Counted from the stretch's first letter, positions 21,163 through 61,453 are shown. The stretch is 64,000 bases of DNA from Candidatus Bathyarchaeota archaeon (GCA_963833575.1 CAWHXY010000007.1:192001-256000); one strand, 5' to 3'. Program-made: numbers and translations. The notes: generated by a model not told the origin, from the letters alone.

Positions 21163-21480
21163 TTGGGCTGGCGAGTTGGTGTGTGGCTTTCGGACCCAAA
21201 TTGCTGGGTCTGAGGAAACTCCGCCCACGTGTAGAATTGCAGCTCTATGATGGAGCAGCGCGAGAGCGTTGGCAACGGAGCAGAAACGAAACGTCAAACT
21301 GGACCGGCAATGAGACATTTGTGATGTCGAGTGCGCCAGTTTAGAAACGATGAAACGGCCGTCCTGCAAGTGGAAAGGGCAAACAGTCGCTGATGAAGTC
21401 TCTACCTGAAGGCGCGGGTAGCCCGATTAGCCGAATGCCACAATAACAGAAGGCGGGTTACAGCCAGCACACCAGCCCAA
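21163..21480 (+). ncRNA. rnpB: RNase P RNA (archaeal)
   Basis: Universal elements GAGGAAACTCCGCCC (21212-21226) and AACAGAAGGCGGGTTA; terminal helix TTGGGCTGG/CCAGCCCAA; P2 TGTGGC/GCCACA; GC-rich island. Confidence 0.93.
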
Positions 21481-44984: not shown

Positions 44985-45061
44985 TGGTGCCGAGGGCAGG
45001 GTTTGAACATGCGACGACTCGGTCTTCAGCCGAGCGCTCTCCCAGGCTGAGCTACCTCGGC
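44985..45061 (-). tRNA. tRNA-Phe (GAA), CCA encoded
   Basis: GCCGAGG/CCTCGGC acceptor stem, CTCGG-CTGAAGA-CCGAG anticodon arm, TTCAAAC T-loop; one T-stem mismatch. Confidence 0.93.
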
Positions 45062-45452: not shown

Positions 45453-45529
45453 GGGCCGTTAGTCTAGCTGGCTAGGACGTCGCCCTCACGCGGCGAAGAT
45501 CACCGGTTCAAATCCGGTACGGCCCACCA
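45453..45529 (+). tRNA. tRNA-Val (CAC), CCA encoded
   Basis: GGGCCGT/ACGGCCC acceptor stem, TCGCC-CTCACGC-GGCGA anticodon arm, ACCGG-TTCAAAT-CCGGT T arm. Confidence 0.96.
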
Positions 45530-46701: not shown

Positions 46702-46724
46702 GTATACGAAAGCATCAACAAAAC
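46702..46724 (-). repeat. 23-bp dispersed motif, copy 1
   Basis: Minus strand GTTTTGTTGATGCTTTCGTATAC. Confidence 0.9.
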
Positions 46725-47307
46725 ATAGTAAACCTACCTCTATCTGCAATCCGAAGAATTCAAAAGATACTCAAAGTTCTCGAAAGTCAACGAACTATAA
46801 ATATACATGCACAATCAAAAACAAAAAATTAGGCAAAAAGCTCTAAAGGGGTCAAACAATAGGCATCTGAAGAATAAAAAAGTCCGAATTTTAAGAATAA
46901 CAGGGTAGCAAACCCAAACTCACTCGCTACGACAGCTAATTTAGGGAACAAATAATCCCCTGTAACCTTGTTGACAGGCACTTTAAGCCAGTCAAACAGC
47001 TATTAAATCGCCAAGTTTTCCCTTAGGCTTATTTAACTGCACGAAAAATAGCCGAACGGTCATTTTTTACATGTAAAAGTTAAAATAGCTATTAATACAA
47101 AGGCAAAAAAAGCGCTATTTTGATAATGCGTCCATGCCATTTTCTTGTACCGGTGGCTACGATATACGAAGAAAATTGTTTTGCAGGAAAGAAAGGGTTT
47201 TTCAGCAAGCCAGAGCATAAACGTTGCATTGGGTTGAAAAAACGTGTGCGAACGAGAAGCTGCAGGCCTTGGAATTGCTGGATTTGCTTATGGGATTTTG
47301 AAAGTGT

Positions 47308-47330
47308 GTTTGGTTGATGCTTTTGTATAC
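47308..47330 (+). repeat. 23-bp dispersed motif, copy 2
   Basis: GTTTGGTTGATGCTTTTGTATAC. Confidence 0.9.
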
Positions 47331-47410
47331 GGGTTCTAAAGTTAACGTGCAGTTTATTTCAGCATTTCCATTTTTTCAAGTTTTTTTGTCAATTACCAAG
47401 GGTTTAATCC

Positions 47411-48118
47411 ATGAGTGTTGAACGTAATCTGATAATTTCATTATTAAAATTAACTAAGAAAGGGGCAATTTTAATTGAAAATGTCAAAGAAGACGCCAGA
47501 ACACCATTAGCAATGACGAAAAAGTTGTTATCAAATCTGCAAAATGAAGGGCTCGTTTATTTGAAATCAGACAGTGTTGAAGCCAGCACCAGTATGAGAC
47601 TTAAACTGATGATTAAGGCAGCGTCATTAGGGGCCGATGTTGAGCACATCAGCAACTTTCTTTGTTGGCAGGAATTTGAGGAAATCGCCGCTTTCGCATT
47701 AAAAAATTTCGGTTACACTGTGACCAATAACATGCGCTTTAAACATGCAGGTCACAGATGGGAAATAGATGTTGTTGCATGTAAGAAACCTCTAGTTGTT
47801 TGCATTGATTGTAAACATTGGCAACATGCAATTACGCCCTCAGCCTTGCGAAAAATCGTTGATGCACAGGTACAGCGGACAAAAGCTTTAGCCGAATCCT
47901 TGCCCAACCTTTCACTTACATTAGAATGCACAAAATGGGAAAACGCAAAGTTTACTCCAGTCATACTATCTCTCATACCCAGTGCTTACAAATTTGTCGA
48001 CGACGTTCCTATTGTGCCTATCCTAAAATTACAAGACTTCATCAACCAAATGCCCGTTTACATGGGCTCTATAAAGTTTTTTTCCAGATCTTTCAATTCG
48101 TTAAGTCATAATTTTTAG
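47411..48118 (+). CDS. Winged-helix plus PD-(D/E)xK (Mrr/NERD-like) nuclease-domain protein
   Basis: N-terminal KKLLSNLQNEGLV wHTH pattern; WQEFEEIAA...GY...EIDVVA...IDCKHW nuclease motif. Confidence 0.8.
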   Translation: MSVERNLIISLLKLTKKGAILIENVKEDARTPLAMTKKLLSNLQNEGLVYLKSDSVEASTSMRLKLMIKAASLGADVEHISNFLCWQEFEEIAAFALKNFGYTVTNNMRFKHAGHRWEIDVVACKKPLVVCIDCKHWQHAITPSALRKIVDAQVQRTKALAESLPNLSLTLECTKWENAKFTPVILSLIPSAYKFVDDVPIVPILKLQDFINQMPVYMGSIKFFSRSFNSLSHNF

Positions 48119-49972
48119 AAGGGCTGTTTTTGCGAGCCTATAAGCGGGGTAGAGGCTCAAGATGAACATTACGGATAGAGCTGACGCGAGCCAGAGGGTA
48201 ATTTGTAACATGGTGAAGCCGGTTATGATGGGTTGCTGCATTAGGATGAGAACTGTAATGATAGTGCCGAACAATATTCCTATTCCGAAGCTTGAGAGAA
48301 GCAGAATTAAGCTTTGAATTGCGAAAGAAAGCACAACAAATCTGGGTTTAGCCCCTACAGCTCTTAGAATAGCGTATTCTTGGTGCTGCTCATCCACCGT
48401 AAGCATCATGTAACCAACCAGGCAAAAGGCGGCAGATGCCAAGGTGAAGATTGGCAGAAGCATGATGGTTTGCCATGTTGAGGATAAGAAATTTGTGTTC
48501 TTTTGAATGATTTTATCTAAGGAGACCACGGTTAGGTTTGGATCAATTGATTGAACCATTGTTTTGATTTGTGCAATCGTGGTTGAACTGGAATCTTTCA
48601 GCTGCACTAACAACAGGTTGGGGCTGGAAATGCCAGTTACATTCATTAACGTATCAATTGATACGTAAGTAACTAAGCCGTTATTGAGAGGGTCAACGCA
48701 GACTCCAACAATGTTAAAAGTATTGTTCCCAAACTCTATACCTTGGACAAGTGGATTTGACTGGTTTATATTCAAACTTTTATCGGGTGAATACATTGAT
48801 TGAGCAATTGAATCGCCAACAACGGCATTCAAACTGCCATTGATCGTCAAAAAGTGCCCTGCAACACTCCATGTGCCATCAAGTTTGTCAACATTAACAC
48901 CTATTACTATCGAATCACCCTGCCTATGGTCGCCCACAGAAGAAGTCCCTGAAGTAGAAAGATTGTTAGGATCAACAGTAAAGTTGTCAATTTCTGAAAC
49001 ATGCTCATCTAAAACCAACCGGGAATCAACCAAAATCACACTTGATAACGTACCTAACTGGACAATTACCGGTTGCGGAATGGCAAGATTTGGGTCAGAA
49101 TAGTTAAAATCACCGTTTGCTGAGCCGCCCGAAAACTTGGCGATCAACTGTTCATATTGGTTGCCCATGCTGTTTGTGGCTATTGCAATTGTTTTTGGGT
49201 TAACAGTGTTTTGTACCCATGAAGTTGTTGTATCCCGGGCGATTATTCCTCCTGCAATTGAGACAGTGAGCAACACGAAAACGAGTGAAAGCAAAAATAC
49301 GAGGCGGATGCTTGCTTTTTGGCGGCGGTACATGCTTCTTGACGCAATCTGCCAAGTTAAACCCCATTTTGACACGGGTTTAAGTTTACTGCCTATGGTT
49401 AAACCGTTGTATTCTATAGGTGAGAGCGCTTTTACAGGGGTCATTTTGGATGCTTTAAGCATAGGCCAGAGCCCAAAAAGCAACGAAAAAACAAAAAAAG
49501 CGGCAAAAACTCCAGGTCCAAACCACAAGTTTGGCAGCTTGTAAGCAGAAAAGACCCAGTTACTAACGCCAAAATCCGTTAAAAAACCAAAAACAACGCC
49601 TAAACCACATCCTGTAAGGGTTACTGTTAAGAGTTCAGTTATAAAATATCCGGCAACAAGACTATTTGGACAGCCTGCAGCCTTAATTAAACCGAAATCC
49701 CGAGTTCTCTGAGCCATCATCAAAAAAGCGATAAAGCTTGACAAAACTGCTCCAACCGCAAAAACTAAAACGCCCACAAAAAAAGTGACCGTCGATAAAG
49801 CACCGTTTATACCCATGGTTAATGTTCCCGCGGTGGATGTTGTATAGAAGCCTAAACGGCTGCTAAAAAGCAAAAGAAACAGTGTTGAAGAAACGCTTAA
49901 CGTTAAAGTGGCGATTGTTAGGCTTGTTTGAAGCTTGCGTCGGAGCAAATCATTGGTTGGAAAATTACTCAT
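48101..49972 (-). CDS. ABC transporter permease, FtsX/MacB-like (two permease repeats)
   Basis: QRTRDFGLIKAAG and EQHQEYAILRAVGA motifs; ATG 49972 overlaps the ATPase stop. Confidence 0.88.
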   Translation of the reverse strand: MSNFPTNDLLRRKLQTSLTIATLTLSVSSTLFLLLFSSRLGFYTTSTAGTLTMGINGALSTVTFFVGVLVFAVGAVLSSFIAFLMMAQRTRDFGLIKAAGCPNSLVAGYFITELLTVTLTGCGLGVVFGFLTDFGVSNWVFSAYKLPNLWFGPGVFAAFFVFSLLFGLWPMLKASKMTPVKALSPIEYNGLTIGSKLKPVSKWGLTWQIASRSMYRRQKASIRLVFLLSLVFVLLTVSIAGGIIARDTTTSWVQNTVNPKTIAIATNSMGNQYEQLIAKFSGGSANGDFNYSDPNLAIPQPVIVQLGTLSSVILVDSRLVLDEHVSEIDNFTVDPNNLSTSGTSSVGDHRQGDSIVIGVNVDKLDGTWSVAGHFLTINGSLNAVVGDSIAQSMYSPDKSLNINQSNPLVQGIEFGNNTFNIVGVCVDPLNNGLVTYVSIDTLMNVTGISSPNLLLVQLKDSSSTTIAQIKTMVQSIDPNLTVVSLDKIIQKNTNFLSSTWQTIMLLPIFTLASAAFCLVGYMMLTVDEQHQEYAILRAVGAKPRFVVLSFAIQSLILLLSSFGIGILFGTIITVLILMQQPIITGFTMLQITLWLASALSVMFILSLYPAYRLAKTALLKIMT

Positions 49973-50657
49973 TTTCACTCGCCAATTTGCCGTCTTCAAG
50001 CAGTAAAATTTGGTCAGCCAACGCTTTTATTTGCTCGTCATGGGTTGAAACAATAACTGTTTTTCCTTGGTTCTTGAGCAGTTGGAGGACTTGGATGATT
50101 TTGTTGCCGTTTTTTGCATCTAAGTTACCTGTTGGTTCATCTGCCAAGATTAGCTGCGGATCATTCGCTAATGCCCTAGCAAAAGCTACCCGCTGCTGTT
50201 CGCCACCGCTTAGTTGAGACGCAAAATGATTAGCTCTATGCTGTAAGCCCACAGTTTCTAACAGTTCGTCTACTCTTTTGGCTATCTCTTCAAAAGGCTT
50301 TCGCGTCCACTCCATGGGAAAAGCAATGTTTTCCGCCACTGTCAATGTTGAAACTAAATTGTAAGATTGAAAAACAAAACCCAAGTTATTGCATCGAAAA
50401 TCTGACAGAGTATCCTCGTTTTGAGAGGTTAAATTTTGGTCTGCAACAAAAATTTTGCCGATTGAGGGTCTGTCGATGCCGCCGATAATATTTAGCAGGG
50501 TGGTTTTTCCTGAGCCAGACGCGCCGGTTAATGCTATGAATTTTGCTTTCGGGATAGACAAAGAAACATTTTTTAATACTTCAATTTTTTCGTCGCCTAA
50601 TTGGTAAACTTTTCCTAACGCTTCTGTGTACACCATAAAATCGGGGTGGTTTGACAA
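49965..50657 (-). CDS. ABC transporter ATP-binding protein (LolD/MacB-like)
   Basis: GASGSGKTT, LSGGEQQRVAFARAL, ILADEPTGNLD, STHD. Confidence 0.95.
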   Translation of the reverse strand: MSNHPDFMVYTEALGKVYQLGDEKIEVLKNVSLSIPKAKFIALTGASGSGKTTLLNIIGGIDRPSIGKIFVADQNLTSQNEDTLSDFRCNNLGFVFQSYNLVSTLTVAENIAFPMEWTRKPFEEIAKRVDELLETVGLQHRANHFASQLSGGEQQRVAFARALANDPQLILADEPTGNLDAKNGNKIIQVLQLLKNQGKTVIVSTHDEQIKALADQILLLEDGKLASENE

Positions 50658-50732
50658 TTGCCTCCCTCACTTTTAAGAAAAAAGGTTAATCGTGCCCGAA
50701 TAATATAGGTTGAGGTACATTCCCTTACGAAG

Positions 50733-51167
50733 CTAAGCATAGGTGGTGTCGATGTTCAAGTTTCCTCTGTCCCGTTTAAGAATGCGGACTTTGTCGGGAA
50801 GCTTGTTTTTTTCCCAATCAGCCCAGCTAATTTCTTTAAAAAGCCATCGTTTACCCAAATGCGCAGCCACTACCGCATGTTTGTAAGCATGTTCGCTGGG
50901 GATGAATAAGTCAAGAAACTTGAATAATTTGTCGATTTGTTGCCTGGGAAAGTAGGCGTAGTATGAGGCATTTTTTACTTCAAAAGCGTAACTGTGTAGG
51001 CCTTTCCGCGCCATAATGTCAGGTAGGGGATTGAGGCTTGGATTGCTTACAGGGACCCGGACGGCATTGTAACCTTTTTTCTGCAGTAACTTGACAAGTA
51101 CTGTTTCACTATAAAAGCCCCTTTTTCGCCAACGCCGAAGCCTTATCCTATCAATTTCTGTAGTCAC
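50733..51167 (-). CDS. hjc: Holliday junction resolvase Hjc-like nuclease
   Basis: KRG...E..LVKLLQKKGY.AVRVPVS...PDIMA...FEVK. Confidence 0.8.
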   Translation of the reverse strand: MTTEIDRIRLRRWRKRGFYSETVLVKLLQKKGYNAVRVPVSNPSLNPLPDIMARKGLHSYAFEVKNASYYAYFPRQQIDKLFKFLDLFIPSEHAYKHAVVAAHLGKRWLFKEISWADWEKNKLPDKVRILKRDRGNLNIDTTYA

Positions 51168-51246
51168 GGTTTTTCCCTGAGTATTTACTGTTTTATTCTA
51201 TGCGTTAGAGATAAAAATTGTTGCTCTGGAGCGCTATAAAAACTGT

Positions 51247-51269
51247 GTTTTGTTGATGCTTCTGTATAC
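51247..51269 (+). repeat. 23-bp dispersed motif, copy 3
   Basis: GTTTTGTTGATGCTTCTGTATAC. Confidence 0.9.
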
Positions 51270-51875
51270 GCTGCTGCAGACTGGTGTGCCTGGGAAGGCA
51301 TAGTGATGGAAAATATTCTAAATAATACTTACATCACCAAATCAACTGAAATCGTAAACCCCACCATTAACGCATTAAAAATATTGCCATATTAGGCTAC
51401 ATTAAACATTAGAAAAGTTAACGCTGAACCCAACAAACCTCAAAATAAAGCCTATTAGAAACAAAATTCCACCAACAAACAGTGGTGCAAGAGCAAAAAA
51501 CCCTTAAAAAGTTATCAAAGAATTATCATCAAAACACATAATGCAACGTGGGCTCAAAAGTAAGCGACCTCAAAGTTTCTGCGAGGAAGTTGGTTAATGG
51601 CAACTCACTAAACAAATTGTACAGAATTCTAAGTTAGATAGCTTACAATAAGCAGGTAGGTCTTTTTAAACTTGTTACAAAAGCCGGCAAACGAGCTGAT
51701 TGTTGATTTATCTGAAATAAAAAATATTTGTCTAAGCAGAATTTATTTAGACTTTAGGCTCGATTACAAAATTTTCCTTTTTTGAGTTTGTGCGCTAAAT
51801 CCGCAAAGTTTTCGGAATTAAGGAAAAAACTGTAAAAGTGGTCGAAGGTGATACGAAAAAATTGGCTTTTGCTTC

Positions 51876-51925
51876 GCATGGAGATTTTCGAGGGTACTTA
51901 TATGAGGCCCCGATATTCTCCATGC
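51876..51925. other. 50-bp imperfect palindrome centred on TTATAT within the 1.8-kb gap
   Basis: GCATGGAGA...TCG.GGG-(TACTTATATGAGG)-CCCCGA...TCTCCATGC. Confidence 0.6.
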
Positions 51926-52998
51926 CACTCTCCCAAGGCACCTAGCTAAAGGGCTGAATTAACCCTATTTTGAGGTTTCAAGCTTAAATTGACAGTTTAA
52001 ATTATCGTTTCCATAGAAAAAAACGACGAACTTTTTTGTCTCTTGGAATTCGTGAAAAAACAAACATCAAAATTAAAATTTATGCCAATGTGAGCTCTAT
52101 TTCACCTTATTTTATTAAAATAAAGCTAACGGTGTTCCGTAATTTTTATTATTCCAATTTAAGAAAAAAATTTGTAAACTTGCGAGAACAACAACAACTG
52201 CGCACAGCACCGTATCCTACTTCTTGTCTGGGTCTGCGAGAGAAAGAAAAAACTTGAAAAAGCATCATTATTTGTTTGGGTTGTCTGGCGAACTTCTGAA
52301 TTGTGAAAAAACTGAATTGTACTGAATGCATTCTTTTCTGTAACCAGTCCGCAATAGAGTTATCAGATCAAAGTCAGCCAACTTATCAAAACAAAGGCTA
52401 TCCTCCTAAAATTTTATAAACTCCACAAATATCTCAAAAAGTTAATTATGCTAACTTCACAAAACAATTGTCTCGTTACTTGCTAAATTCTTTTCTGAAA
52501 TCATACAAAAAAATAAACAGCATGTCCCTCTGTGAGACGAGGTCAAGTCTTGAACTATGTTACTACAAAAAATAGTAGCGAATGCGGTTCAATAGTTATT
52601 ACCTGTTGTCTAATTGATCTTAACCTGTCGTTAAGCCAACGGTTTGGAGAAATTTTGAAAATCTTTTTTACTCTTATTGTAAGAGCAAGTATACTATTGA
52701 AGGTTCCAAGCCTGCCTAAAAGGTGCTAAGTTTGAGTCGCCACTTGATCTAAAAAAAGTGCTGAGTGACTATCGTGCTACGGGTATTACCAAATTCTTGA
52801 TCATCACAGACAACAACTAACAAAAAGATAAGGCCATTTCAACATGTCAATTAGGCAAAAGGCATTCCGCCAAAACATTTCTATTTCTTGACAGGGTAAT
52901 CAACTATTAGTTCTAAGAATTAAACAGTCCATAATAACGGCACCGCTTAAATGCAATCAACAGCAACTTCCACCTGATCTTTAAGAAAATAGTTTCTT

Positions 52999-53021
52999 GT
53001 ATACAAAAGCATCACCCAAAC
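52999..53021 (-). repeat. 23-bp dispersed motif, copy 4
   Basis: Minus strand GTTTGGGTGATGCTTTTGTATAC. Confidence 0.9.
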
Positions 53022-53036
53022 CCAGTCGGCAGGGAG

Positions 53037-54317
53037 TTAAGTTGACCGTTTTCTTTTATAAACTAAGACCGCTATGACGATTGCCATTAGTACTATAGCA
53101 CTCGCGATTGCTGGAAACTCTGGGACTGACGGTGATGGAGATGCTGATATGTTAGGTGCAGTTAGAAATGGCACAAAGTTTACCGTACCCAAACTGGAAT
53201 CATGTTTATTGTCATAGATTGTTTTGCTGATTGCTGTTTGGTTGGTTGTTCCCCAATAATTGTAAGTTGCATTTACGTTGCTTGTAACTAAATGAGATAG
53301 GAAGAGGTTGTAAGAATTATTTTGGAAATTATTATAGATGACAGTTGGAAAATCAAAATTGTTGACTTGTTGAATCCCTATGTAGTTGTTTTCTATCGTG
53401 TTATTTATCACTCTATTAGGTCCTTCAATATTGATGCCATCATGATTGTTCGTAATCAAATTATTTTCGATGACTCCGAAACCTTCTGCTGCAATGCCTT
53501 GCACGCCGCAACCACTTATTGTATTTCCAGAAATGGTAATATTATTTGCAGGAAGTGTCAAAAAACTGATTCCTACTCCGTTTATGCCGCCACCTGTAAT
53601 TTTGTTATTTGAAATCACTGGTGTTCCTTGCAGATCGCTGCTATCTTCTATGTTGCCGCCGATAACATTGGTTTGTACCTGAACTGAACCGTTAATTTGG
53701 TTGTTTAAAACTGTGGAAGGTCCAGTTAGATCGATTTCGCCCGCAACAATATTATTTGAAATTACTGAAGTTCCGTTGGAAGTAATGTAGCCCGTGATTT
53801 CATTGTTATCTATTTTTGGCGAACTTTCAAGAGCTAATGTAGTTGAGTTGATGATTGCGTTTTCAATTATGCTTCCAGACCTAGTTTGAGCGTCATATCC
53901 AACGCTTAGTTTTGTAAAGTTGATTCCATAAGTAAAAGGAGGGTTAGGCGCTGGTGGAGGCATAAAGGGGCCTGTACCGCTTACGCCATTTATTTGTATC
54001 TTGTCAGTGCTTGTGCCTTTTGCAACCAAAGCACCATTAACAGTTATGTAATAGTTGTTGAGGTTCACCGTTGCTCCTGCTTCTAATGTTAACGTAACCC
54101 TCTGGCTTACTGAAACATTTCCAATCAAATTGTATGAGCTCCCAGCTATAGTCCAAGTTGTATTGGCGTTGATTACGCCTTTTTCGTTCGTACCAATTTG
54201 CGCCAACCCGAAATGTACTGAACCCGTGAAAGCAAACCCGCCAATCACAATCGCAATAAGTGCTAATTCAAAATAGTGATGTCTCAAAGCTAGACCAAAA
54301 GTTAAGGGACTATTCAA
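53037..54317 (-). CDS. Secreted parallel beta-helix surface glycoprotein with PEF-CTERM sorting signal
   Basis: Signal-like N-terminus, repeated I-x-N-N-x-I, many NxS/T sites, YNYWG, C-terminal VPEFP plus TM plus KRKR. Confidence 0.85.
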   Translation of the reverse strand: MNSPLTFGLALRHHYFELALIAIVIGGFAFTGSVHFGLAQIGTNEKGVINANTTWTIAGSSYNLIGNVSVSQRVTLTLEAGATVNLNNYYITVNGALVAKGTSTDKIQINGVSGTGPFMPPPAPNPPFTYGINFTKLSVGYDAQTRSGSIIENAIINSTTLALESSPKIDNNEITGYITSNGTSVISNNIVAGEIDLTGPSTVLNNQINGSVQVQTNVIGGNIEDSSDLQGTPVISNNKITGGGINGVGISFLTLPANNITISGNTISGCGVQGIAAEGFGVIENNLITNNHDGINIEGPNRVINNTIENNYIGIQQVNNFDFPTVIYNNFQNNSYNLFLSHLVTSNVNATYNYWGTTNQTAISKTIYDNKHDSSLGTVNFVPFLTAPNISASPSPSVPEFPAIASAIVLMAIVIAVLVYKRKRST

Positions 54318-54937
54318 GGAATTTATTGTTTATCCTTTTGGGTTGGAATACAAACAGATTAACAGAACGCACTTTTACACCCTGCTGGCTTTGTATTTAC
54401 CTAATTAACGCCCGAGAAGAATCGAACATTGACGAAGGTTAAATATACGTGCGCCCAAAAGATGATCATGAAGAAAAATACAGCAAATAAATCATAAAAC
54501 AAGTCGTTAATAGCGGGCGTAAGAGTTCTTTTGATTAAAATGGCTGCTTAACACGTAAAGCAAAGTTGGCTTGGTCTAAAAAAAGCAATTTTTGATTGAT
54601 TTCTAATATTTTTTGGGCTATGAAAATGTATCTTTTTACCTTTTGGGCAGACAAGTTCTGAAAATCCTGTGATTCAATGGTTTTTGCTATTCGAAAGTTA
54701 TCTGGATTGGGAATTTTATACACCTAAAAGTTAAAATGACTTCTAAGTCATAGTTGACAATAACACGTTGCTTGCTAATTATTCATGGCTTGCATGTTTT
54801 TAGCACTTCGGTTGCCGAAGAGATAAGTTACAAAAACATACAAAACCAGAGAGACAAACGACCAGCTATACATCAAAAAATAGATTTAGAAACATTTTTC
54901 AATTATCTGCATCTATCAATCAGCTAAGGAAGCGCAC

Positions 54938-55354
54938 ATGTCAAGCTTTAAAGTCGTGAACAAGAGCTTTAGCTTCACCACTAAAGGCGAAATAGATTTT
55001 GTTGATTTGAGCGACAAAGTCCAAGATGAGGTTTCACTTTCAGGCATCAAAAACGGGATTGCACACGTCTTTGCCCCTCATGCAACAGGCATCCTAATTC
55101 TAACAGAAAACGATGAGGCTCTTCTTGAAGACATCAAGATTCTGTTTGAAGAGCTTGCGCCAAAACAAAAAAGATACCTTCACCCTTCTAACGCCCACTC
55201 CCACCTGCGGTCTATGCTTCTGCCGCCAGATAAAACCCTGCCCGTAATTGACGGCAAGGTAACTTTTGGCACCTGGCAGTCATTGCTATTTGTAGAAACC
55301 GATGTTTACCCAAGAAAACGAACAATGATAATCCAAGTTATAGGTGAGCAATAA
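54938..55354 (+). CDS. yjbQ: YjbQ/UPF0047-family protein
   Basis: PHATG...ENDE, NAHSHLRS, FGTWQ. Confidence 0.92.
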   Translation: MSSFKVVNKSFSFTTKGEIDFVDLSDKVQDEVSLSGIKNGIAHVFAPHATGILILTENDEALLEDIKILFEELAPKQKRYLHPSNAHSHLRSMLLPPDKTLPVIDGKVTFGTWQSLLFVETDVYPRKRTMIIQVIGEQ

Positions 55355-55949
55355 AAATCCAAAAGAGTCAAATGGCAGCTCACTTTTTACAAGCGTTCTA
55401 TTTTTTTCAAAGTTTCTTTTTTTCGATTTTTTGTCATGACGAATATGTTGGTTAACATATAGTTTTAACTGTTTAATGATAATCAAACAAACTTGCATGT
55501 TATTTTTTAACTATTTATTGTTAAAAGTGATCATTCGCAGGGATTTCGATAACAAACCAATCTGATTGTATTTCGCCTCATTAGTAAATAGATTTGTGAC
55601 CGCTGAAAATCCTGAAATCAATTGCTAATAAGACTTGGGTAAACACATTCAGACAAACCCGGACCCCTCGTAAAGACTACTTTCAACCAAAAACGCATCA
55701 CGTCTTGATTAACTGAACGAAAATACCGAAATGACTAAGAAAAAATTCAAAATTTTAGCTCAAAGCAAACGAATTGTCGGGTATTGTTACGAAAAAAGTA
55801 AAGCGCAATCAATTCTCTGCAAATACAATCAGATAGAGACCAAATCTGGCACTCAGTGAAGTAGTAGGGTTACAGTTTGGTTTTCTAAAAACAAAATTTC
55901 TAAAAAAAGAATTCATGATTATATAAGGTTCGGTGTACTTCGAGAAAAA

Positions 55950-56690
55950 TCAGCTTTTCTTCTCTGTACGAACCTGTCTCGCTGGCCCTCGAGAACGCAT
56001 TCGAGCTTTTTTCTTTACATCGGCCCGCTCTGAAGACTTTTCCGCCAAAGAGTCAGGTTCCGTTTCCTCTAAAGGTAAGCTGTCAACTGCATCAGGAAAA
56101 TCATCGTTTGTGGCCTGTTGCGCTCCAGCATTAACCATCGCTTCGACGGCCCGGTCCACGTCGCCTGATTCCGCGTTAATGCCTCGTGTTGCATCCATAA
56201 GCACCACTGTCTCAAAACCAAGTTTGCGTGCATCAAGAACTGTGTTCACAACGCAATAATCCGTTGCCAACCCACCAACAAAAAGCCGTCTAGCTTCGCA
56301 CATTTTCAGTTCATGGGCGAAGCTTGTTCCATCAAAAACCGAGTAGCTTTCATGTTCAGGATTGGTTGCCTTGGAAATAACCGCGGCTACAGACGGTAGT
56401 TTGAGGTCAGGGCTAAACTTGGCGCCGTCTGTATCTTGTATGCAATGAGGCGGCCATGGACCGCCCTGCGCTTTAAACGAGATATGATTGGATGGATGCC
56501 AATCTCTAGATTCAAAAATATGCACTTTTGCATCTGCAAAACGTTTTGCGTACGCATTAAGAACAGGAATTATTTCGTCCACACCTTCAACGGGAAGCGC
56601 TCCGCCTGGCAAGAAATCTTTTTGCATATCCGTAATCAAAAGGGCATCAAAACTTGATAGATTATACGTTTTCTTCTTCAAATAACACAC
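55950..56690 (-). CDS. pncA: Nicotinamidase/pyrazinamidase with charged C-terminal extension
   Basis: DMQKDFLPGGAL, RDWHP..HISF, WPPHC, GLATDYCV. Confidence 0.92.
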   Translation of the reverse strand: MCYLKKKTYNLSSFDALLITDMQKDFLPGGALPVEGVDEIIPVLNAYAKRFADAKVHIFESRDWHPSNHISFKAQGGPWPPHCIQDTDGAKFSPDLKLPSVAAVISKATNPEHESYSVFDGTSFAHELKMCEARRLFVGGLATDYCVVNTVLDARKLGFETVVLMDATRGINAESGDVDRAVEAMVNAGAQQATNDDFPDAVDSLPLEETEPDSLAEKSSERADVKKKARMRSRGPARQVRTEKKS

Positions 56691-56827
56691 CTTATTTCCA
56701 TTTTTCTTTAATGAATACTTAGAAATTCAAGTTAGAATAAGCAGGTACTATCGAATAAACTTTTTGAAACCATTTGGTCGACGGAAAAGTAATTAAGGAT
56801 TTGTTACTTTAATGAAATGGTGAAGTT

Positions 56828-57094
56828 ATGTCTGTTTTATCTTATGTTCTTTTTAAAGTTGCTTCAGGCACAGAAAGGGAAGTTGCTCAAAAAATGACTG
56901 AATTCGAAGAGGTTATGGAAGCAGATGTAGTTTTCGGCGAGTACGATGTCATTGCAAGAATGGCAACAGTTGATCTGGAAAAGTTACAGGATTTTGTTTC
57001 AGATAAAGTGAGAACTGTCCCGAACGTTCTTGTGACATCAACTATGATAATTTCAAGAGAATACAAGGGAAAAACCCATCGACCAAAAAAATAA
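56828..57094 (+). CDS. Stand-alone Lrp/AsnC ligand-binding (RAM) domain protein
   Basis: VVFGEYDVIAR, VRTVPNVLVTSTMI; no HTH. Confidence 0.9.
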   Translation: MSVLSYVLFKVASGTEREVAQKMTEFEEVMEADVVFGEYDVIARMATVDLEKLQDFVSDKVRTVPNVLVTSTMIISREYKGKTHRPKK

Positions 57095-57108
57095 GCACTC
57101 TTTTAGTT

Positions 57109-57131
57109 GTTCGGTTGATGCTTTTGTATAC
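57109..57131 (+). repeat. 23-bp dispersed motif, copy 5
   Basis: GTTCGGTTGATGCTTTTGTATAC. Confidence 0.9.
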
Positions 57132-57187
57132 CAACATGGATAGCCTTATCTTTTTAACCTGAGCAATAAAATACGAAGGCATCAAAC

Positions 57188-58729
57188 ATGCAAACAAAAA
57201 CCAATGACGACTCTATCTCAAGCAAAGAAATGCAAGCCTTAGAAGTCAACGCTGAATATTATGGCATAAGCTTGCTTCAACTAATGGAAAACGCTGGCTG
57301 TAAAATTGCTCACGAAACAATTTCACGTTTCCCCAAAGAAAAGAAAATTGCTATTTTCTGCGGTTTAGGCGGAAACGGAGGCGATGGCTTTGTAGCTGCA
57401 AGGCATCTTTTAGACGCTGGATACCACGTGACAGTTATTCTTGTGGGTAAGGCTCGAGACATCAATCATGAAGCTGCATTGAAAAACTGGGTGATTCTTG
57501 AGTCTTTGCAAGATAAAGTTTCATTAATTGAAATAATAGATAGTTCCACTATACCTCAAACATCGGCTGATATTGTGGTAGATGCTTTGTTGGGAACTGG
57601 AACCAAGGGGAAACTTAAGCCGCCAATATCCCAAACAGTTGAATACATTAATTCCTTAAATGCTTTTAAAATAGCAATCGATGTCCCAACAGGCATCGAC
57701 TCGGACACAGGAGAAGTTTTAGGTACAGCACTAAAAGCCAATCTCACAGTAACTTTCCATAAAGAGAAAACGGGACTAAAAAAAGCAAAAAAATATGTCG
57801 GCGAATTGACTTTGGCAAAGATAGGTTTGCCAAAGGAAATAGAGCATTACACTGGTCCAGGTGACGTTTATCTTGCAAAAAAGCCACGTAACCCAACATC
57901 TCATAAAGGCGATTTCGGGCGACTTCTTGTCATCGGCGGAAGCGAAGTTTATTATGGAGCGCCTACGCTGGTTTCGCTTGGAGCCATGCGGACAGGTGTG
58001 GACCTTGTTTATCTTGCGGCTCCTGCTAAGGCTGCTTGCGCTATTTCGTCCATGTCTCCTGACCTAATAACTGTGAAGCTTGATGGCGCCAATTTGAATC
58101 CAGGTAACATAGAGACGCTCATTCCTTATTTGAGCTTGGTTGACACTGTTGCCTTAGGTCCTGGTTTAGGCTTGAGCCCTGAAACATTAGAATTCGTTAA
58201 ATTATGTATTAAAGAAGTGGAGAAGGCGGGTAAATCCTTGCTTCTGGACGCGGATGGGATTAAAGCGTTTGCAAAGTTTAAAAGACCTCTAAAGGTACCA
58301 TTGGTTTTGACGCCTCATGCAGGTGAATACGCCACACTTTCAGGTAGAACTTTGCCTGAAAATCTAGACGAACGTGCTTTGGCAGTGCAGAAGACCGCAG
58401 GAAAACTCAATGCTGTTGTCTTAGTGAAGGGCAAAGTTGACGTAATATGTGATGCCTTCCGATTTAAATTCAATTTCACGGGAAACGTGGGTATGACTGT
58501 GGGCGGAACAGGTGATGTTCTAAGTGGTATTGTTGGCGGTTTGATGGCTCAACATATCGACCCGTTTGAAGCAGCAGTTGCCGGCGCGTTTGTTAATGGA
58601 GCTGCAGGCGATTTTGTCGCAGAAGAAATTGGTTTTCACATGGTAGCTACAGACATTATTGATTGGATTCCACAAGTTTTAGATGACCCGATGAGTCATT
58701 TGAAGGTGCGCAAACCAAGTGGAAGATAA
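57188..58729 (+). CDS. nnr: Bifunctional NAD(P)H-hydrate repair enzyme (NnrE epimerase plus NnrD dehydratase)
   Basis: LMENAG, GGNGGDG, DALLGTG, DVPTG; HKGDFG, GPGLG, DADG, LTPHAGE, GGTGDVLSG. Confidence 0.95.
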   Translation: MQTKTNDDSISSKEMQALEVNAEYYGISLLQLMENAGCKIAHETISRFPKEKKIAIFCGLGGNGGDGFVAARHLLDAGYHVTVILVGKARDINHEAALKNWVILESLQDKVSLIEIIDSSTIPQTSADIVVDALLGTGTKGKLKPPISQTVEYINSLNAFKIAIDVPTGIDSDTGEVLGTALKANLTVTFHKEKTGLKKAKKYVGELTLAKIGLPKEIEHYTGPGDVYLAKKPRNPTSHKGDFGRLLVIGGSEVYYGAPTLVSLGAMRTGVDLVYLAAPAKAACAISSMSPDLITVKLDGANLNPGNIETLIPYLSLVDTVALGPGLGLSPETLEFVKLCIKEVEKAGKSLLLDADGIKAFAKFKRPLKVPLVLTPHAGEYATLSGRTLPENLDERALAVQKTAGKLNAVVLVKGKVDVICDAFRFKFNFTGNVGMTVGGTGDVLSGIVGGLMAQHIDPFEAAVAGAFVNGAAGDFVAEEIGFHMVATDIIDWIPQVLDDPMSHLKVRKPSGR

Positions 58730-59276
58730 CGCCGAAACTTCGGCTCCAAAGTTTCCTTTGCGAATTACCATCTATCATGCCGCTCAAGATGATCCTAAAA
58801 AAAACACTGCCTTAAGATTAAAACGTCGTGGATTTGCACGGATAGTTACTAAGACACGGTTTCTACCAAAACGAGCTATAGTGCTAAATCCGTTCGGTGA
58901 AATTGCTTTTTCACCTGCAGACAGAGAGCGAATTGAGCAGTTTGGGTTGGCTGCGCTGGATTGCAGTTGGGAACATGCAGAAAAAGTCATGGGTGATCAC
59001 GTTAAAGGAACAAGTCGTTGCTTGCCCATTCTAATTGCGGGAAACGCTGTCAATTTTGGGAAACTTACCAAGTTAACTACTGCCGAAGCCATAGCCGCTG
59101 CATTATATATTGCTGGATTCCAAAAGGAATCACATGAGCTTTTATCAATTTTCACTTGGGGACACACGTTTTTCGATTTAAACGCCATGCTGCTTGGCAA
59201 TTATGTTGCAGCCAAAGATAGTACTGAAATCGTGGAAATGCAAAATAGGCTTTTGAAGGGCAAGAAATGTGAATAA
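58719..59276 (+). CDS. tsr3: 16S rRNA aminocarboxypropyltransferase (DUF367)
   Basis: QDDPKKNTA, LDCSW, RCLPILIAGNAVNFG, LTTAEAIAAAL, FTWGHTFFDLN. Confidence 0.92.
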   Translation: MEDNAETSAPKFPLRITIYHAAQDDPKKNTALRLKRRGFARIVTKTRFLPKRAIVLNPFGEIAFSPADRERIEQFGLAALDCSWEHAEKVMGDHVKGTSRCLPILIAGNAVNFGKLTKLTTAEAIAAALYIAGFQKESHELLSIFTWGHTFFDLNAMLLGNYVAAKDSTEIVEMQNRLLKGKKCE

Positions 59277-59283
59277 CACTGGG

Positions 59284-59306
59284 GTTTTGTTGATGCTTTT
59301 GTATAC
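59284..59306 (+). repeat. 23-bp dispersed motif, copy 6
   Basis: GTTTTGTTGATGCTTTTGTATAC. Confidence 0.9.
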
Positions 59307-60782: not shown

Positions 60783-61157
60783 ATGAAACAAGGATTAACT
60801 GAGTTGGGTTTTGAAATTCTTTTTTCAACCGATGACTCGCCAGGTAAAATTGCCTTTGATCAGGCAATCGAAGAATCAATTGAGGCCGCGCTTTCGCTTT
60901 TGGGAAATATAAGTAAAGAAAGGGTTTATCACCATTTGGAAAACAGGTATGGCTTAAAGAAAGAGGATATTCCTCGGCGTATTGGAGAGTTCACGCATGC
61001 TTTTGAAGAAACATTTGGCTCAGTTGCTAAGCTCCTTGAAATAAAAATAATTGAGCGGCTTCATTCTAAATTCGGGAATTTCTCTTATAGTCCGATGCAT
61101 GAAGACATAGATTTCATAGAATTTATTAATAATCTTCAGCAGTATTTGGAGACTTAA
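60783..61157 (+). CDS. Hypothetical helical protein (DUF3227-like, common in TACK archaea)
   Basis: ALSLLG...VYHHLE..YGL...IP.RI.EF..A.EE.FG..AKLLE pattern. Confidence 0.65.
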   Translation: MKQGLTELGFEILFSTDDSPGKIAFDQAIEESIEAALSLLGNISKERVYHHLENRYGLKKEDIPRRIGEFTHAFEETFGSVAKLLEIKIIERLHSKFGNFSYSPMHEDIDFIEFINNLQQYLET

Positions 61158-61453
61158 ACAACCGTTAAAGTCAAAGTCGACTTAATGCTATCAAGATTTT
61201 TTATATTTTTAAACACTACTTCACGAAGTTGCTCCAAAGATTCACCACTTACTTTGGCAATAATATCGTAAGCTCCACGAGAATTATAAAGCTCAACAAC
61301 ACCTTCAACATTTTTCAAATCTTCAAGTGCGCCTTTGGTTGAATCAGGTTTGGCGGTTATGAAAACAAAAGCAAACCTTTTAGAAGTCTGGGTCGTTTCC
61401 ATTAAAGAATTAATGTCGATTCCGGCACCTATGTTTGCGAAGACATTTTCCAA
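61154..61453 (-). CDS. Stand-alone Lrp/AsnC ligand-binding (RAM) domain protein
   Basis: AFVFI...GAYDIIAKV...IKNLDSIKSTLTL; start may be the ATG at 61402. Confidence 0.88.
   Translation of the reverse strand: MENVFANIGAGIDINSLMETTQTSKRFAFVFITAKPDSTKGALEDLKNVEGVVELYNSRGAYDIIAKVSGESLEQLREVVFKNIKNLDSIKSTLTLTVV

Follow-up and report, generated by a model that had tools for sequence, protein, structure and literature searches.

A polar, asymmetric motif clustered at the replication terminus of a Bathyarchaeia order is a candidate Ter-like element

We analysed a 64,000-nucleotide stretch of a Candidatus Bathyarchaeota genome (the window), in which six copies of an asymmetric motif lie between positions 46702 and 59306. 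The locus is the replication terminus, opposite the orc1-1/ORB origin. The explanation that we favour, although we hold it to be somewhat short of probable, is that the six copies constitute a putative protein-bound, polar, Ter-like terminus element, which is the locally expanded form of an element found order-wide.

Scanning of the 64-kb window with the pattern GTTYKGKTGATGCTTYYGTATAC recovered the six copies at the coordinates and on the strands of the original prediction (46702−, 47308+, 51247+, 52999−, 57109+, and 59284+), while none of 100 shuffled versions contained any match. A scan allowing up to three mismatches added no further copy across the window, in agreement with the claim that the first 46 kb hold none. 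The 2.75-Mb assembly contains seven exact copies, the six of the window and one at C4:842559+, so the clustering is real. Analysis of 93 instances from 18 loci indicated that the partly conserved 5′ flank noticed earlier is genuine and extends the motif to approximately 31 nt (aaAACTGTGTTTKGKTGATGCTTYYGTATAC), with no conservation 3′ of GTATAC. The motif is asymmetric and has no dyad; its 5′ half is weakly conserved, its 3′ half (GATGCTTYYGTATAC) is nearly invariant, and two direct TTTTGT half-sites lie 12 bp apart within it. The copies in the window are spaced by 583 to 4087 bp in mixed orientations, and their flanks are mutually unrelated in sequence. As had been proposed, all six are intergenic when only credible genes are counted, and some closely follow stop codons, the distance from stop codon to copy start being 14 nt for 57109, 7 nt for 59284, and 15 nt for 52999−.

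The first copy, M1 (46702–46732, − strand, with an 8-nt extension of the core), directs its GTATAC strong half outward, towards rpl38e. A spacer of approximately 580 bp (gap1, 46733–47299) separates it from the divergent copy M2 (47300–47330, +), which is aimed at a nuclease gene (47411–48118, +) and lies 80 nt upstream of its start; such a divergent copy pair precedes this gene in 64 of 80 loci. Two conserved promoter-like blocks, apparent when 16 orthologous spacers are aligned, read on the + strand of gap1 (~46770–46806 and 47040–47095), each built as TCGAA-N5-6-CGAA followed by a TATA-like box. The nuclease combines a wHTH domain with a NERD/Mrr_cat/YraN-like PD-(D/E)xK domain. It had been suggested as a binder of the motif. 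Its gene is single-copy and class-wide (156/201 genomes), and was missed with this query in three motif-carrying genomes. Genes for an ABC transporter permease and ATPase (48101–50657, −), absent from some relatives, are followed by hjc (50733–51167, −), encoding the Holliday junction resolvase, which is the conserved neighbour of the inward-facing copy pair order-wide. In the window this pair consists of M3 (51239–51269, +) on the left and M4 (52999–53029, −) on the right, the latter 15 nt behind the stop codon of a surface-protein gene, and both turn their strong halves towards the intervening spacer (gap2, 51270–52998). The spacer measures 1729 bp here and approximately 250 bp in many relatives, and holds no ORF of 85 aa or more. 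It includes two conserved blocks, one (51270–51470) with TGGTG boxes and a TGGTGA-N27-TCACCA dyad and the other (51842–52038) with a promoter-like hairpin around a TATA-like box. The TGGTG boxes invert at the spacer centre.

To the right, the block 53037–57094 comprises genes for a NosD-like surface protein (−), UPF0047 (+), an isochorismatase-family protein (−), and a stand-alone Lrp/AsnC ligand-binding-domain protein of 88 aa (+). M5 (57101–57131, +), with its strong half outward, begins 14 nt after a stop codon, 56 nt before nnr, and 13 nt upstream of a conserved TATA-like element, GGATAGCCTTATCT. The genes nnr (NAD(P)HX epimerase/dehydratase) and tsr3 (57188–59276, +) are followed by M6 (59276–59306, +), which lies 7 nt after the tsr3 stop codon and 69 nt before a LysE-family gene, and is present only in some relatives. 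The original prediction placed all large gene-free gaps in this interval. The largest (1870 bp) and others of 792, 621, and 596 bp are indeed there, but further gaps lie outside it, of 600–1000 bp at 21–27 kb and of 1502 bp at 44.8–46.3 kb.

Comparison of relatives showed that the motif is order-specific, being found in 41 of about 51 genomes of one Bathyarchaeia order versus 3 of 150 from other orders of the class; a reversed control pattern gave 8 hits in the same survey. Genomes carry 2–13 copies, and in the genus studied here 6–13 copies occupy fixed gene-block junctions. Exactly one forward and one reverse match were found in eight genomes and, among those with listed positions, the two are 240–590 bp apart and inward-facing. 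Many genera appear to hold a single inward-facing pair about 250 bp apart and adjoining hjc, and the ancestral form appears to have been one such pair per chromosome, with the strong halves face to face. Lineage-specific variants (GTATCC, TCTATGC) are common to the copies inside one lineage, and this concerted evolution would fit sites that track one binding protein. The original prediction held that orientation does not track promoters, which has to be corrected: among relatives a copy is kept at fixed orientation and distance to the nuclease gene (73/80 loci), nnr (16/16), hjc (68/72), and UPF0047 (59/60), and a copy upstream of gdh is conserved in at least five genomes.

The position of the locus was measured on six single-contig chromosomes of 2.15–3.05 Mb, assumed to be closed and circular, and all six place it 0.48–0.52 of the circle from orc1-1 (0.509, 0.516, 0.508, 0.505, 0.500, and 0.477), this position, like the polarity described below, being partly inherited through synteny, so that the genomes are not independent. 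The second orc1 paralogue lies at a circle fraction of 0.24–0.34, and canonical ORB-like repeats were found upstream of orc1-1 in two genomes (G000 and G003). For a cumulative walk, leading-strand words were chosen solely from the oriC flanks of contig C4; a bias in gene strand probably underlies the skew of these words. The leading strand is enriched in GGTG. The walks, which sampled 35–38% of each of two genomes, peak at the locus in G003 (means of +37.4 versus −13.2 per 20 kb; t=3.43, p=0.0015), where the six best free partitions all switch between the 955-kb and 990-kb samples, and in G040, a member of another family (+21.1 versus −53.2; t=3.78, p=5e-4), with the switch between the 1170-kb and 1198-kb samples. 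On contig C7 the walk climbs to about 230 kb and is flat beyond. In G000, neither GC skew nor ORF-strand bias inflects at the locus. The original idea of a one-locus marker is therefore supported in its terminus version, by the antipodal position and by walk peaks in two families, and not in its origin version, since ORB-like repeats sit at orc1-1 and the extremum at the locus is a maximum rather than a minimum.

Copies outside the locus are also oriented with respect to replication. All 18 genuine outlying copies in six genomes point the way the fork travels, their half-sites being placed such that it reaches the weak one before the strong one. These copies represent about 9–10 independent loci, of which 5 lie in divergent intergenic regions. 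The inner pair M3/M4 is likewise oriented for fork entry, and M1, M5, and M6 are opposite, an outward orientation that is conserved in relatives. Because, under the same polarity rule, these three would stop forks before the core, they argue against a simple and efficient fork trap.

The cluster is also a site of recurrent rearrangement. In 4 of 80 loci a core of approximately 10 kb is inverted exactly between the inverted copies M1, the left breakpoint, and M5, the right one, with the breakpoint at most 62 bp from the motif. In the sister loci L105 and L124 (SH-aLRT 100), colinearity begins exactly at the M1 core. The inversion corresponds to four changes on the tree, at least two of which are forced by strongly supported branches, and in type II relatives the block 53037–57094 is inverted together with 46733–52998. 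L107 and L123 carry other rearrangements with breakpoints at copies.

In the Ter-like reading, a sequence-specific protein would bind each site and have a polar effect on the replisome, in the manner of RTP at Bacillus Ter. A fork reaching the weak half first would pass and one reaching the strong half first would pause, and such polar passing and pausing at the inward pair would make forks converge in the spacer 51270–52998, while the copies elsewhere on each replichore would stand in the permissive orientation. The same protein may, in this genus, have gained extra sites just upstream of neighbouring promoters and may double as an operator, comparable to Tus and RTP at their own genes; several copies lie 11–20 nt upstream of TATA-like boxes with gene-linked orientation, which makes such a role possible. 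Stalling or breakage at the inverted outer copies could then lead to the recurrent inversion of the 10-kb core.

This arrangement resembles the RTP-Ter system of Bacillus subtilis, whose sites, in the available text of PMC10331603, are non-palindromic, about 30 bp long, and built of a weak and a strong half-site, with an inverted pair at the terminus near conserved genes, more copies nearby, and one site in a promoter region. The same text has the forks of each replichore meeting the weak half-site first, and places ter sites in the promoter regions of tus and rtp. The likeness is one of architecture. The RTP family (PF02334) reached 21–23 bits at best against a cut-off of 26.7 bits, and its wHTH hits lie far from the locus. 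Unlike in RTP-Ter, three of the local copies are oriented against a trap, the pair spacer spans 250–1750 bp and contains conserved internal blocks, and the replisome, on which polar arrest is presumed, is MCM-based. The Ter sites of Escherichia coli are similarly asymmetric (about 23 bp) and flank the terminus as two opposed groups whose orientation follows replication; they are also known hot spots of instability. However, Tus (PF05472) was matched in none of four genomes, the copies described here are packed into 12 kb instead of being dispersed across much of the chromosome, and a few lie near the origin. The KOPS/ASPS (archaeal short polarised sequences) also follow replication and invert at the terminus, but they are 4–8-mers occurring hundreds to thousands of times per genome, unlike a 31-nt motif with 2–13 copies. 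As in archaeal ORB/mini-ORB elements, asymmetric putative protein sites with lineage-specific variants are inverted around a spacer, although the locus is away from orc1/cdc6 and its skew extremum is terminus-type.

Of the known classes, a Xer/dif site does not match, as no second arm is conserved 3′ of GTATAC and the motif is not single per genome. Three others are rejected. An archaeal ORB-type origin is contradicted by the composition maximum, the ORB-like repeats at orc1-1, and the lack of an adjacent orc1/cdc6 gene. The termini of a MITE or IS family, which the original prediction had raised as an alternative, do not explain copies with unrelated flanks at positions that are syntenic in 80 loci. 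The spacings and mixed orientations are not those of a CRISPR array.

Among the rival explanations, a rather unlikely one is a non-polar terminus organiser, in which a chromatin or roadblock protein would occupy the sites and the long AT-rich spacers without fork arrest, either to build an SMC/condensin boundary or to assist chromosome unlinking or dimer resolution, on the model of the region around dif in Thermococcus. The terminal location by position and word walks, the unusually large gene-free spacers, the conserved neighbours hjc and the wHTH nuclease, and the tolerance of outward-facing copies all agree with it. Precedents exist in Thermococcales: PMC2958812 places dif in the terminus, between conserved AT-rich inverted repeats of about 23 bp to which a partner was proposed to bind, and the available text of PMC11840125 attributes an SMC boundary in T. 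kodakarensis to a 1.9-kb intergenic sequence around dif acting through TrmBL2, and not to dif or XerA itself. Like the locus described here, the dif region is an archaeal terminus element in unusually long intergenic DNA, with AT-rich inverted repeats of about 23 bp as proposed sites for a partner. XerA (NF040815) reached the 220-bit cut-off in none of five genomes (best 104 bits), so that another resolution system may be needed. The dif site is a 28-bp sequence of two 11-bp inverted arms and a 6-bp spacer with the archaeal hallmark TAA-N6-8-TTA (PMC11840125). By eye, neither an 11-6-11 dyad nor the hallmark was seen in the motif or the conserved spacer core, and unlike dif the motif occurs outside the terminus with replication polarity. 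The organiser leaves unexplained both that direction in 18/18 outlying copies and the asymmetry of the half-sites. It is unlikely, to a slightly greater degree, that the copies are operators or upstream activating sites of a transcription factor controlling a small clustered regulon (nuclease, hjc, UPF0047, nnr, LysE, gdh, and local non-coding transcripts), with the terminus position incidental. The original prediction argued against a simple regulon operator, and the pattern is indeed that of one locus rather than a dispersed regulon, but with a gene-linked orientation near TATA-like boxes the copies may still have an operator role. Fixed distance and orientation to one gene across relatives, the retained gdh-upstream copy, and the M5, M6, and gdh copies 11–20 nt upstream of CTTATCT/CTTATAG TATA-like boxes, as activator sites are, favour regulation. 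So does the UPF0047-upstream copy of G040, which inverts along with its gene and is oriented by the gene rather than by replication; the direct half-sites 12 bp apart would suit a wHTH dimer. Yet a 31-nt site that must fit spacers of 93–99 bp is forced into promoter proximity, many genera appear to have one pair genome-wide that faces a non-coding spacer with no TATA-like box directly downstream, some copies adjoin the rps19 operon and other genes on their 3′ side, and the genes concerned have unrelated functions. The antipodal position (about 3% by chance) and the 18/18 polarity would also remain without a cause.

The inversions raise the question of recombinase or invertase target sites flipping the M1–M5 core and possibly smaller segments, which we judge very unlikely. 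The inversion falls exactly between inverted copies and recurred at least twice, the L107 and L123 breakpoints are also at copies, tyrosine recombinase genes lie 10–40 kb from the locus in several genomes, and run X2 contigs have loose ends at copy borders and one joint connecting 51225 to 47301. These joints may be k=31 assembly-graph artefacts at a 31-nt repeat, however, and an active recombinase would be expected to delete the conserved hjc (between direct repeats M2 and M3) and nnr with tsr3 (between M5 and M6). Moreover, the motif has neither a dyad nor a crossover-type core, no recombinase is conserved at the locus, and few loci are inverted. Still less credible is an RNA feature, in which the inward pair would form the terminal stem of a ~300-nt non-coding, possibly circular, RNA and solitary copies would be antisense targets in neighbouring transcripts. 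RNAalifold pairs the two copies of the inward pair over 16 bp with an inner 5-bp hairpin, 7 of 8 one-sided changes are G-U-compatible, and several copies are at 3′ UTR positions, but the covariation term is just −0.55 kcal/mol, the variable 5′-half positions of M3 and M4 mismatch, and the Rfam search found no family. Conservation is of sequence rather than pairing, the gdh, hjc, and UPF0047 copies precede promoters, and the replication polarity is not accounted for. A second replication origin, in which non-ORB initiator sites would flank an unwinding element, is the most improbable of all, even though inverted repeats surround an AT-rich spacer, the locus lies just where the second of two evenly spaced origins would ideally be, and a second Orc1 paralogue is present. 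The walk reaches a maximum in both G003 and G040 and rises towards the locus on contig C7, orc1 genes and canonical ORB-like repeats are elsewhere, and the outlying copies point towards the locus, not away.

Returning to the Ter-like element, a bipartite weak/strong site with a putative binding protein could represent the first replication fork trap, or system of polar termination, to be defined by sequence in Archaea, a claim that we consider possible but doubtful. If it is true, the inward pair would fix the meeting point of two MCM-driven forks opposite a single dominant origin, and such a fork trap would act in a lineage where no XerA/dif was found. Forks that had converged or broken would then be processed by the neighbouring Hjc and wHTH nuclease, and breakage at the sites would be what drives the repeated inversions of the terminus. 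The motif system may be the first set of sites in archaea to be seen as specific for the terminus.

Exactly six copies of the 23-mer were found in the window, at the coordinates and on the strands that the original prediction had given (M1, 46702, minus; M2, 47308, plus; M3, 51247, plus; M4, 52999, minus; M5, 57109, plus; M6, 59284, plus). The degenerate 23-mer was matched by none of 100 shuffles, and allowing three mismatches yielded no additional copy in the window. The window spans 192001-256000 of contig C7 in the source assembly (G000; 2.75 Mb, 8 contigs). The whole assembly contains seven exact copies, namely these six and one on contig C4 (842559, plus). The ±120-nt flanks of the six window copies are unrelated to one another, which rules out a MITE or IS end, and a CRISPR reading of the motif was also rejected. 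Pooling instances (93 in total, from the window plus 17 fetched loci) extended the motif to approximately 31 nt (aaAACTGTGTTTKGKTGATGCTTYYGTATAC), with a weakly conserved 5' half (weak half), nearly invariant 15 nt at the 3' side (strong half), and nothing conserved 3' of GTATAC. The motif holds two direct TTTTGT half-sites, 12 bp apart. The gene identifications proposed earlier proved broadly right: rpl38e, a wHTH + NERD/Mrr_cat nuclease, hjc, a NosD-like surface protein, UPF0047, an isochorismatase-family protein, a stand-alone Lrp/AsnC ligand-binding domain, nnr, tsr3, and a LysE-family protein. The seventh copy (fetched locus L037, 3546-8093, corresponding to 838.5-843.1 kb of C4) is located ~70 bp upstream of gdh, ~200 bp past the stop codon of a 102-aa Sso10a-like wHTH gene, and 2 kb from an MCM gene, which has an adjacent 205-aa gene.

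Within the genus, the motif (≤2 mismatches) is present in all 24 other genomes, with 1-13 matches each, mostly clustered within 10-15 kb and fewest in the least complete assemblies. A class-wide scan of 201 genomes with a 16-mer core (≤1 mismatch) detected it in ~41 of the 51 sampled genomes from the same order versus 3 of 150 in other orders, and the reversed pattern, used as a control, gave 8 matches in total across the 201 genomes. By family, the core is present in 26/27 (f1), 7/7 (f7), 6/9 (f11), 1/1 (f2), 0/4 (f6), and 0/2 (f10) genomes, and in the zero-scoring families variant forms of the motif adjoin the same genes. Comparison of 80 loci, collected using the nuclease protein as query, revealed a nearly invariant array order. 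From the left, rpl38e (plus) is followed by a minus copy, 600-790 bp, a plus copy, the nuclease gene (plus), two ABC genes (minus), hjc (minus), and a plus copy; after 250 or 1300-2700 bp come one or two minus copies, UPF0047 (plus), the isochorismatase gene (minus), the RAM gene (plus), a plus copy, nnr and tsr3 (plus), an optional plus copy, and the LysE gene (plus). A copy stands before the nuclease gene in 73/80 loci (a divergent pair in 64/80), beside hjc in 68/72 (an inward-facing pair in 65/72), before UPF0047 in 59/60, and before nnr in 16/16. In the inward-facing pair (M3 and M4 in the window), both strong halves point toward the spacer (51270-52998). In eight genomes there are exactly two matches, one forward and one reverse; where positions are listed, these form inward-facing pairs, 240-590 bp apart, beside hjc, the nuclease gene, and UPF0047. 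Both members carry the same variants specific to their lineage (for example GTATCC, TCTATGC, and GGTTATGC), and the ~250-bp pair spacer contains conserved TGGTG boxes that invert at its centre together with a TGGTGA-N27-TCACCA dyad. By parsimony, we infer that a single inward-facing pair is the ancestral state.

In G000, the origin-linked Orc1/Cdc6 gene (orc1-1) lies at ~778.3-779.5 kb of C4. A gapped repeat search around the orc1 genes identified two 34-nt direct repeats upstream of it, with a canonical ORB-like core and G-string, at ~779.6-780.07 kb (fetched locus L048, 5598-5631 and 6034-6067); they are 436 bp apart within an 800-bp spacer. A k=11 repeat scan around the orc1 genes found nothing. 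The same repeat pair is conserved upstream of orc1-1 in the single-contig chromosome G003, and this region is likely oriC. The inward-facing pair is positioned almost exactly opposite orc1-1 in six single-contig chromosomes, the distance between them being 0.509 of the circle in G003 (2.355 Mb), 0.516 in G014 (2.683 Mb), 0.508 in G040 (another family, 2.153 Mb), 0.505 in G042 (3.040 Mb), 0.500 in G041 (3.054 Mb), and 0.477 in G043 (2.937 Mb). The position of the second Orc1 paralogue ranges from 0.24 to 0.34. In genomes from other orders of the class the picture is mixed: in G160 (completeness 76%, rounded genome size), ~0.54 of the circle separates the nuclease gene from the only Orc1 match, and a partial match in G209 lies at ~0.29.

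In G000, the amplitudes of GC and AT skew do not suffice to locate an origin or a terminus, and the ORF-strand bias shows no inflection at the locus on contig C7 and a broad minimum near oriC on C4. Since these signals were too weak, we employed a cumulative walk of seven tetramers that switch strand bias across oriC. They were hand-picked from the top non-nested 4-mers on contig C4 only, GGTG and GATG being among those of the leading strand; their bias probably reflects gene-strand bias. Along contig C7, which is independent, the walk climbs steeply from 110 to ~230 kb and is then flat, with the cluster at 238.7-251.3 kb. In G003, sampled as 41 stretches of 20 kb (35% of the genome), the maximum is the sample containing the cluster. 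With replichores predefined by oriC and the cluster, their means are +37.4 versus -13.2 (20 samples each; t=3.43, p=0.0015), and each of the six best free partitions switches between the 955-kb and 990-kb samples. In G040 (41 samples, 38% of the genome), the replichore means are +21.1 (n=21) versus -53.2 (n=19; t=3.78, p=5e-4), and the best partition switches between the 1170-1190-kb and 1198-1218-kb samples, with the pair at 1206.2-1207.7 kb; besides the pair, this chromosome carries a third copy, 3 kb away from it, and a single distant one. A walk maximum at the locus indicates converging replichores, and the motif locus is the replication terminus. The proposal that the copies mark one chromosomal locus is therefore borne out for a terminus by the antipodal pair and the walk maximum, and it fails for an origin, given a maximum rather than a minimum at the locus and the ORB-like repeats at orc1-1.

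The polarity of the outlying copies was surveyed from all core matches in five closed genomes, with their contexts inspected, and the G000 copies were also counted; five 1-mismatch matches inside ORFs without the 5' half and one uncertain match were excluded. All 18 remaining outlying copies in the six genomes are co-directional with fork movement from orc1-1 (G042, 6/6; G014, 5/5; G003, 2/2; G043, 2/2; G040, 1/1; G000, 2/2, one of them degenerate), and the sole anti-oriented match belongs to the five excluded, chance-like ones. By orthology these copies collapse to ~9-10 independent loci, including one 70-80 bp upstream of gdh and divergent from it, and one ~25 nt after the rps19 stop codon. 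Gene strand cannot explain the orientation at five of the loci, because the flanking genes are divergent. Given this co-directionality, a fork meets the weak half first on each replichore. Together with the strong halves of the pair pointing into the spacer, this matches the arrangement of RTP-Ter, described in excerpts of a bacterial fork-trap review as a weak A and a strong B site that blocks forks meeting B first (PMC10331603).

Comparison of gene order revealed that everything between M1 (minus) and M5 (plus) is inverted in three genomes (G014, G015, and G005) and at 4 of the 80 loci (type II relatives), which is exactly what recombination between inverted copies predicts. A nuclease-protein tree was built by a quick IQ-TREE search on 74 rows (49 type I, 6 type II, 13 untyped, and 6 outgroup), three of the 77 input rows having been removed for coverage below 80%. 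The arrangement requires 4 changes on this tree, at least 2 of them forced by strongly supported branches. Two fetched loci, L105 (type I) and L124 (type II), are sisters (SH-aLRT 100); their colinearity starts exactly at the M1 core, and the rpl38e flank, ending 62 bp before M1, recurs inverted at the far end. Further rearrangements break at copies in loci L107 and L123. The inversions are compatible with stalled-fork-stimulated recombination, with a site-specific reaction that occurs rarely, or with ordinary recombination between the 31-nt repeats. Logan contigs of relatives (best share 0.27) do not reveal molecule ends, strand, or within-population inversion. Contigs of relatives from run X2 have loose ends at the motif borders 47301, 47332, and 52998, and one low-depth joint (2.7) links 51225 to 47301, connecting the direct copies M3 and M2; these may represent an assembly-graph effect at the 31-nt repeat, or a real deletion or circle junction.

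We tentatively favour a putative protein-bound, polar, Ter-like terminus element. The genus array is mirror-symmetric about the spacer, with M1 pointing left and M2 and M3 right on one side, and M4 (and an optional M4') pointing left and M5 (and an optional M6) right on the other. The outer copies turn their strong halves toward incoming forks, which is conserved in relatives (80 loci), and these outward-facing copies do not fit a simple fork trap. The main rival, a non-polar terminus organiser, is somewhat unlikely and is based on the surroundings of dif in Thermococcales, the closest archaeal precedent: there, dif occupies a long intergenic stretch of the terminus and is flanked by conserved AT-rich ~23-bp inverted repeats, proposed as partner sites (PMC2958812), and the SMC boundary of T. 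kodakarensis arises via TrmBL2 from dif-surrounding sequence, not from dif or XerA (PMC11840125). A promoter operator is unlikely. M5, M6, and the gdh copy are located 11-20 nt upstream of CTTATCT/CTTATAG boxes, and in G040, where UPF0047 is inverted, the upstream copy keeps its orientation relative to the gene; the 93-99-bp spacers, however, leave a 31-nt site little room other than near promoter boxes. A ter site within the promoter of the terminator gene is also described for RTP-Ter, in excerpts of the same review (PMC10331603).

Recombinase sites, which the inversions would suit, are improbable. No canonical Xer/dif system was found: the archaeal XerA NCBIfam model reached its cut-off (220 bits) in none of five genomes (G000, G003, G014, G040, and G042; best 104), G000 has five weak tyrosine-recombinase matches only, none at the locus, the motif is without the two-arm dyad of dif, and inspection of the spacer by eye for dif revealed no convincing 11-6-11 dyad. 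Across the five genomes searched for XerA, only variable integrase-like tyrosine recombinases were observed, and several are encoded at a distance of 10-40 kb from the locus. Still less probable is an RNA stem, for which the covariation term amounts to only -0.55 kcal/mol; an Rfam search of the window returned no known RNA family that explains the motif or the gaps. A second origin is the most far-fetched reading, as it would give a walk minimum where a maximum is observed.

With regard to binders of the favoured Ter-like element, Tus was found in 0/4 genomes and no RTP match reached the cut-off. The wHTH + PD-(D/E)xK (NERD/YraN-like) nuclease (47411-48118), previously put forward as a candidate, is single-copy in 156/201 Bathyarchaeia genomes, with its catalytic motif conserved, and in the motif-bearing order its gene stays within a few kb of hjc (50733-51167). 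Being class-wide and unmatched, as a query, in three motif-carrying genomes, it remains only a neighbour; it has no sequence relative in the PDB. Other candidate binders are the Sso10a-like wHTH protein encoded beside the gdh copy, the PadR/RTP-like wHTH matches from the RTP search, and the second Orc1 paralogue. An Atlas search with the protein at 60783-61157 returned Bathyarchaeota hypotheticals only. Two stand-alone Lrp/AsnC-type proteins of the ligand-binding (RAM) domain, without an HTH, (56828-57094 and 61154-61453) flank the nnr-tsr3-LysE-macro block.

An Rfam gathering run detected only an archaeal RNase P RNA (21171-21472, 184 bits) and two tRNAs, tRNA-Phe(GAA) (44985-45061) and tRNA-Val(CAC) (45453-45529), and these genes account for some other gene-free gaps. 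An E-value run over 46-60 kb gave two sub-threshold snoRNA-like matches. The gene-free gaps contain three conserved promoter-like modules (46770-46806, 47040-47095, and 51842-52038), each with TCGAA-N5-6-CGAA followed by a TATA-like box. In the third, a conserved 8-bp inverted repeat encloses the TATA-like box in its loop. Contigs from RNA libraries of relatives map to 51808-52291, and the modules may drive unannotated non-coding transcripts.

For archaea, replication termination has been described in Sulfolobus as random fork collision (PMC3020120), and excerpts of the fork-trap review name only the Tus and RTP systems for bacteria (PMC10331603). The literature surveyed, mainly abstracts, mentions no Ter-like element in archaea and nothing on the Bathyarchaeia terminus. 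The DNA element described here is short, conserved, and orientation-aware, and it pinpoints the terminus within a class that is widespread and uncultured. The motif makes it testable whether archaea with a single origin have a defined terminus, what takes the place of Xer/dif where that system is not found, and whether a bound protein stops an MCM-type replisome in a polar manner. It also serves as a practical landmark to orient and check closed Bathyarchaeia genomes, where GC skew is uninformative.
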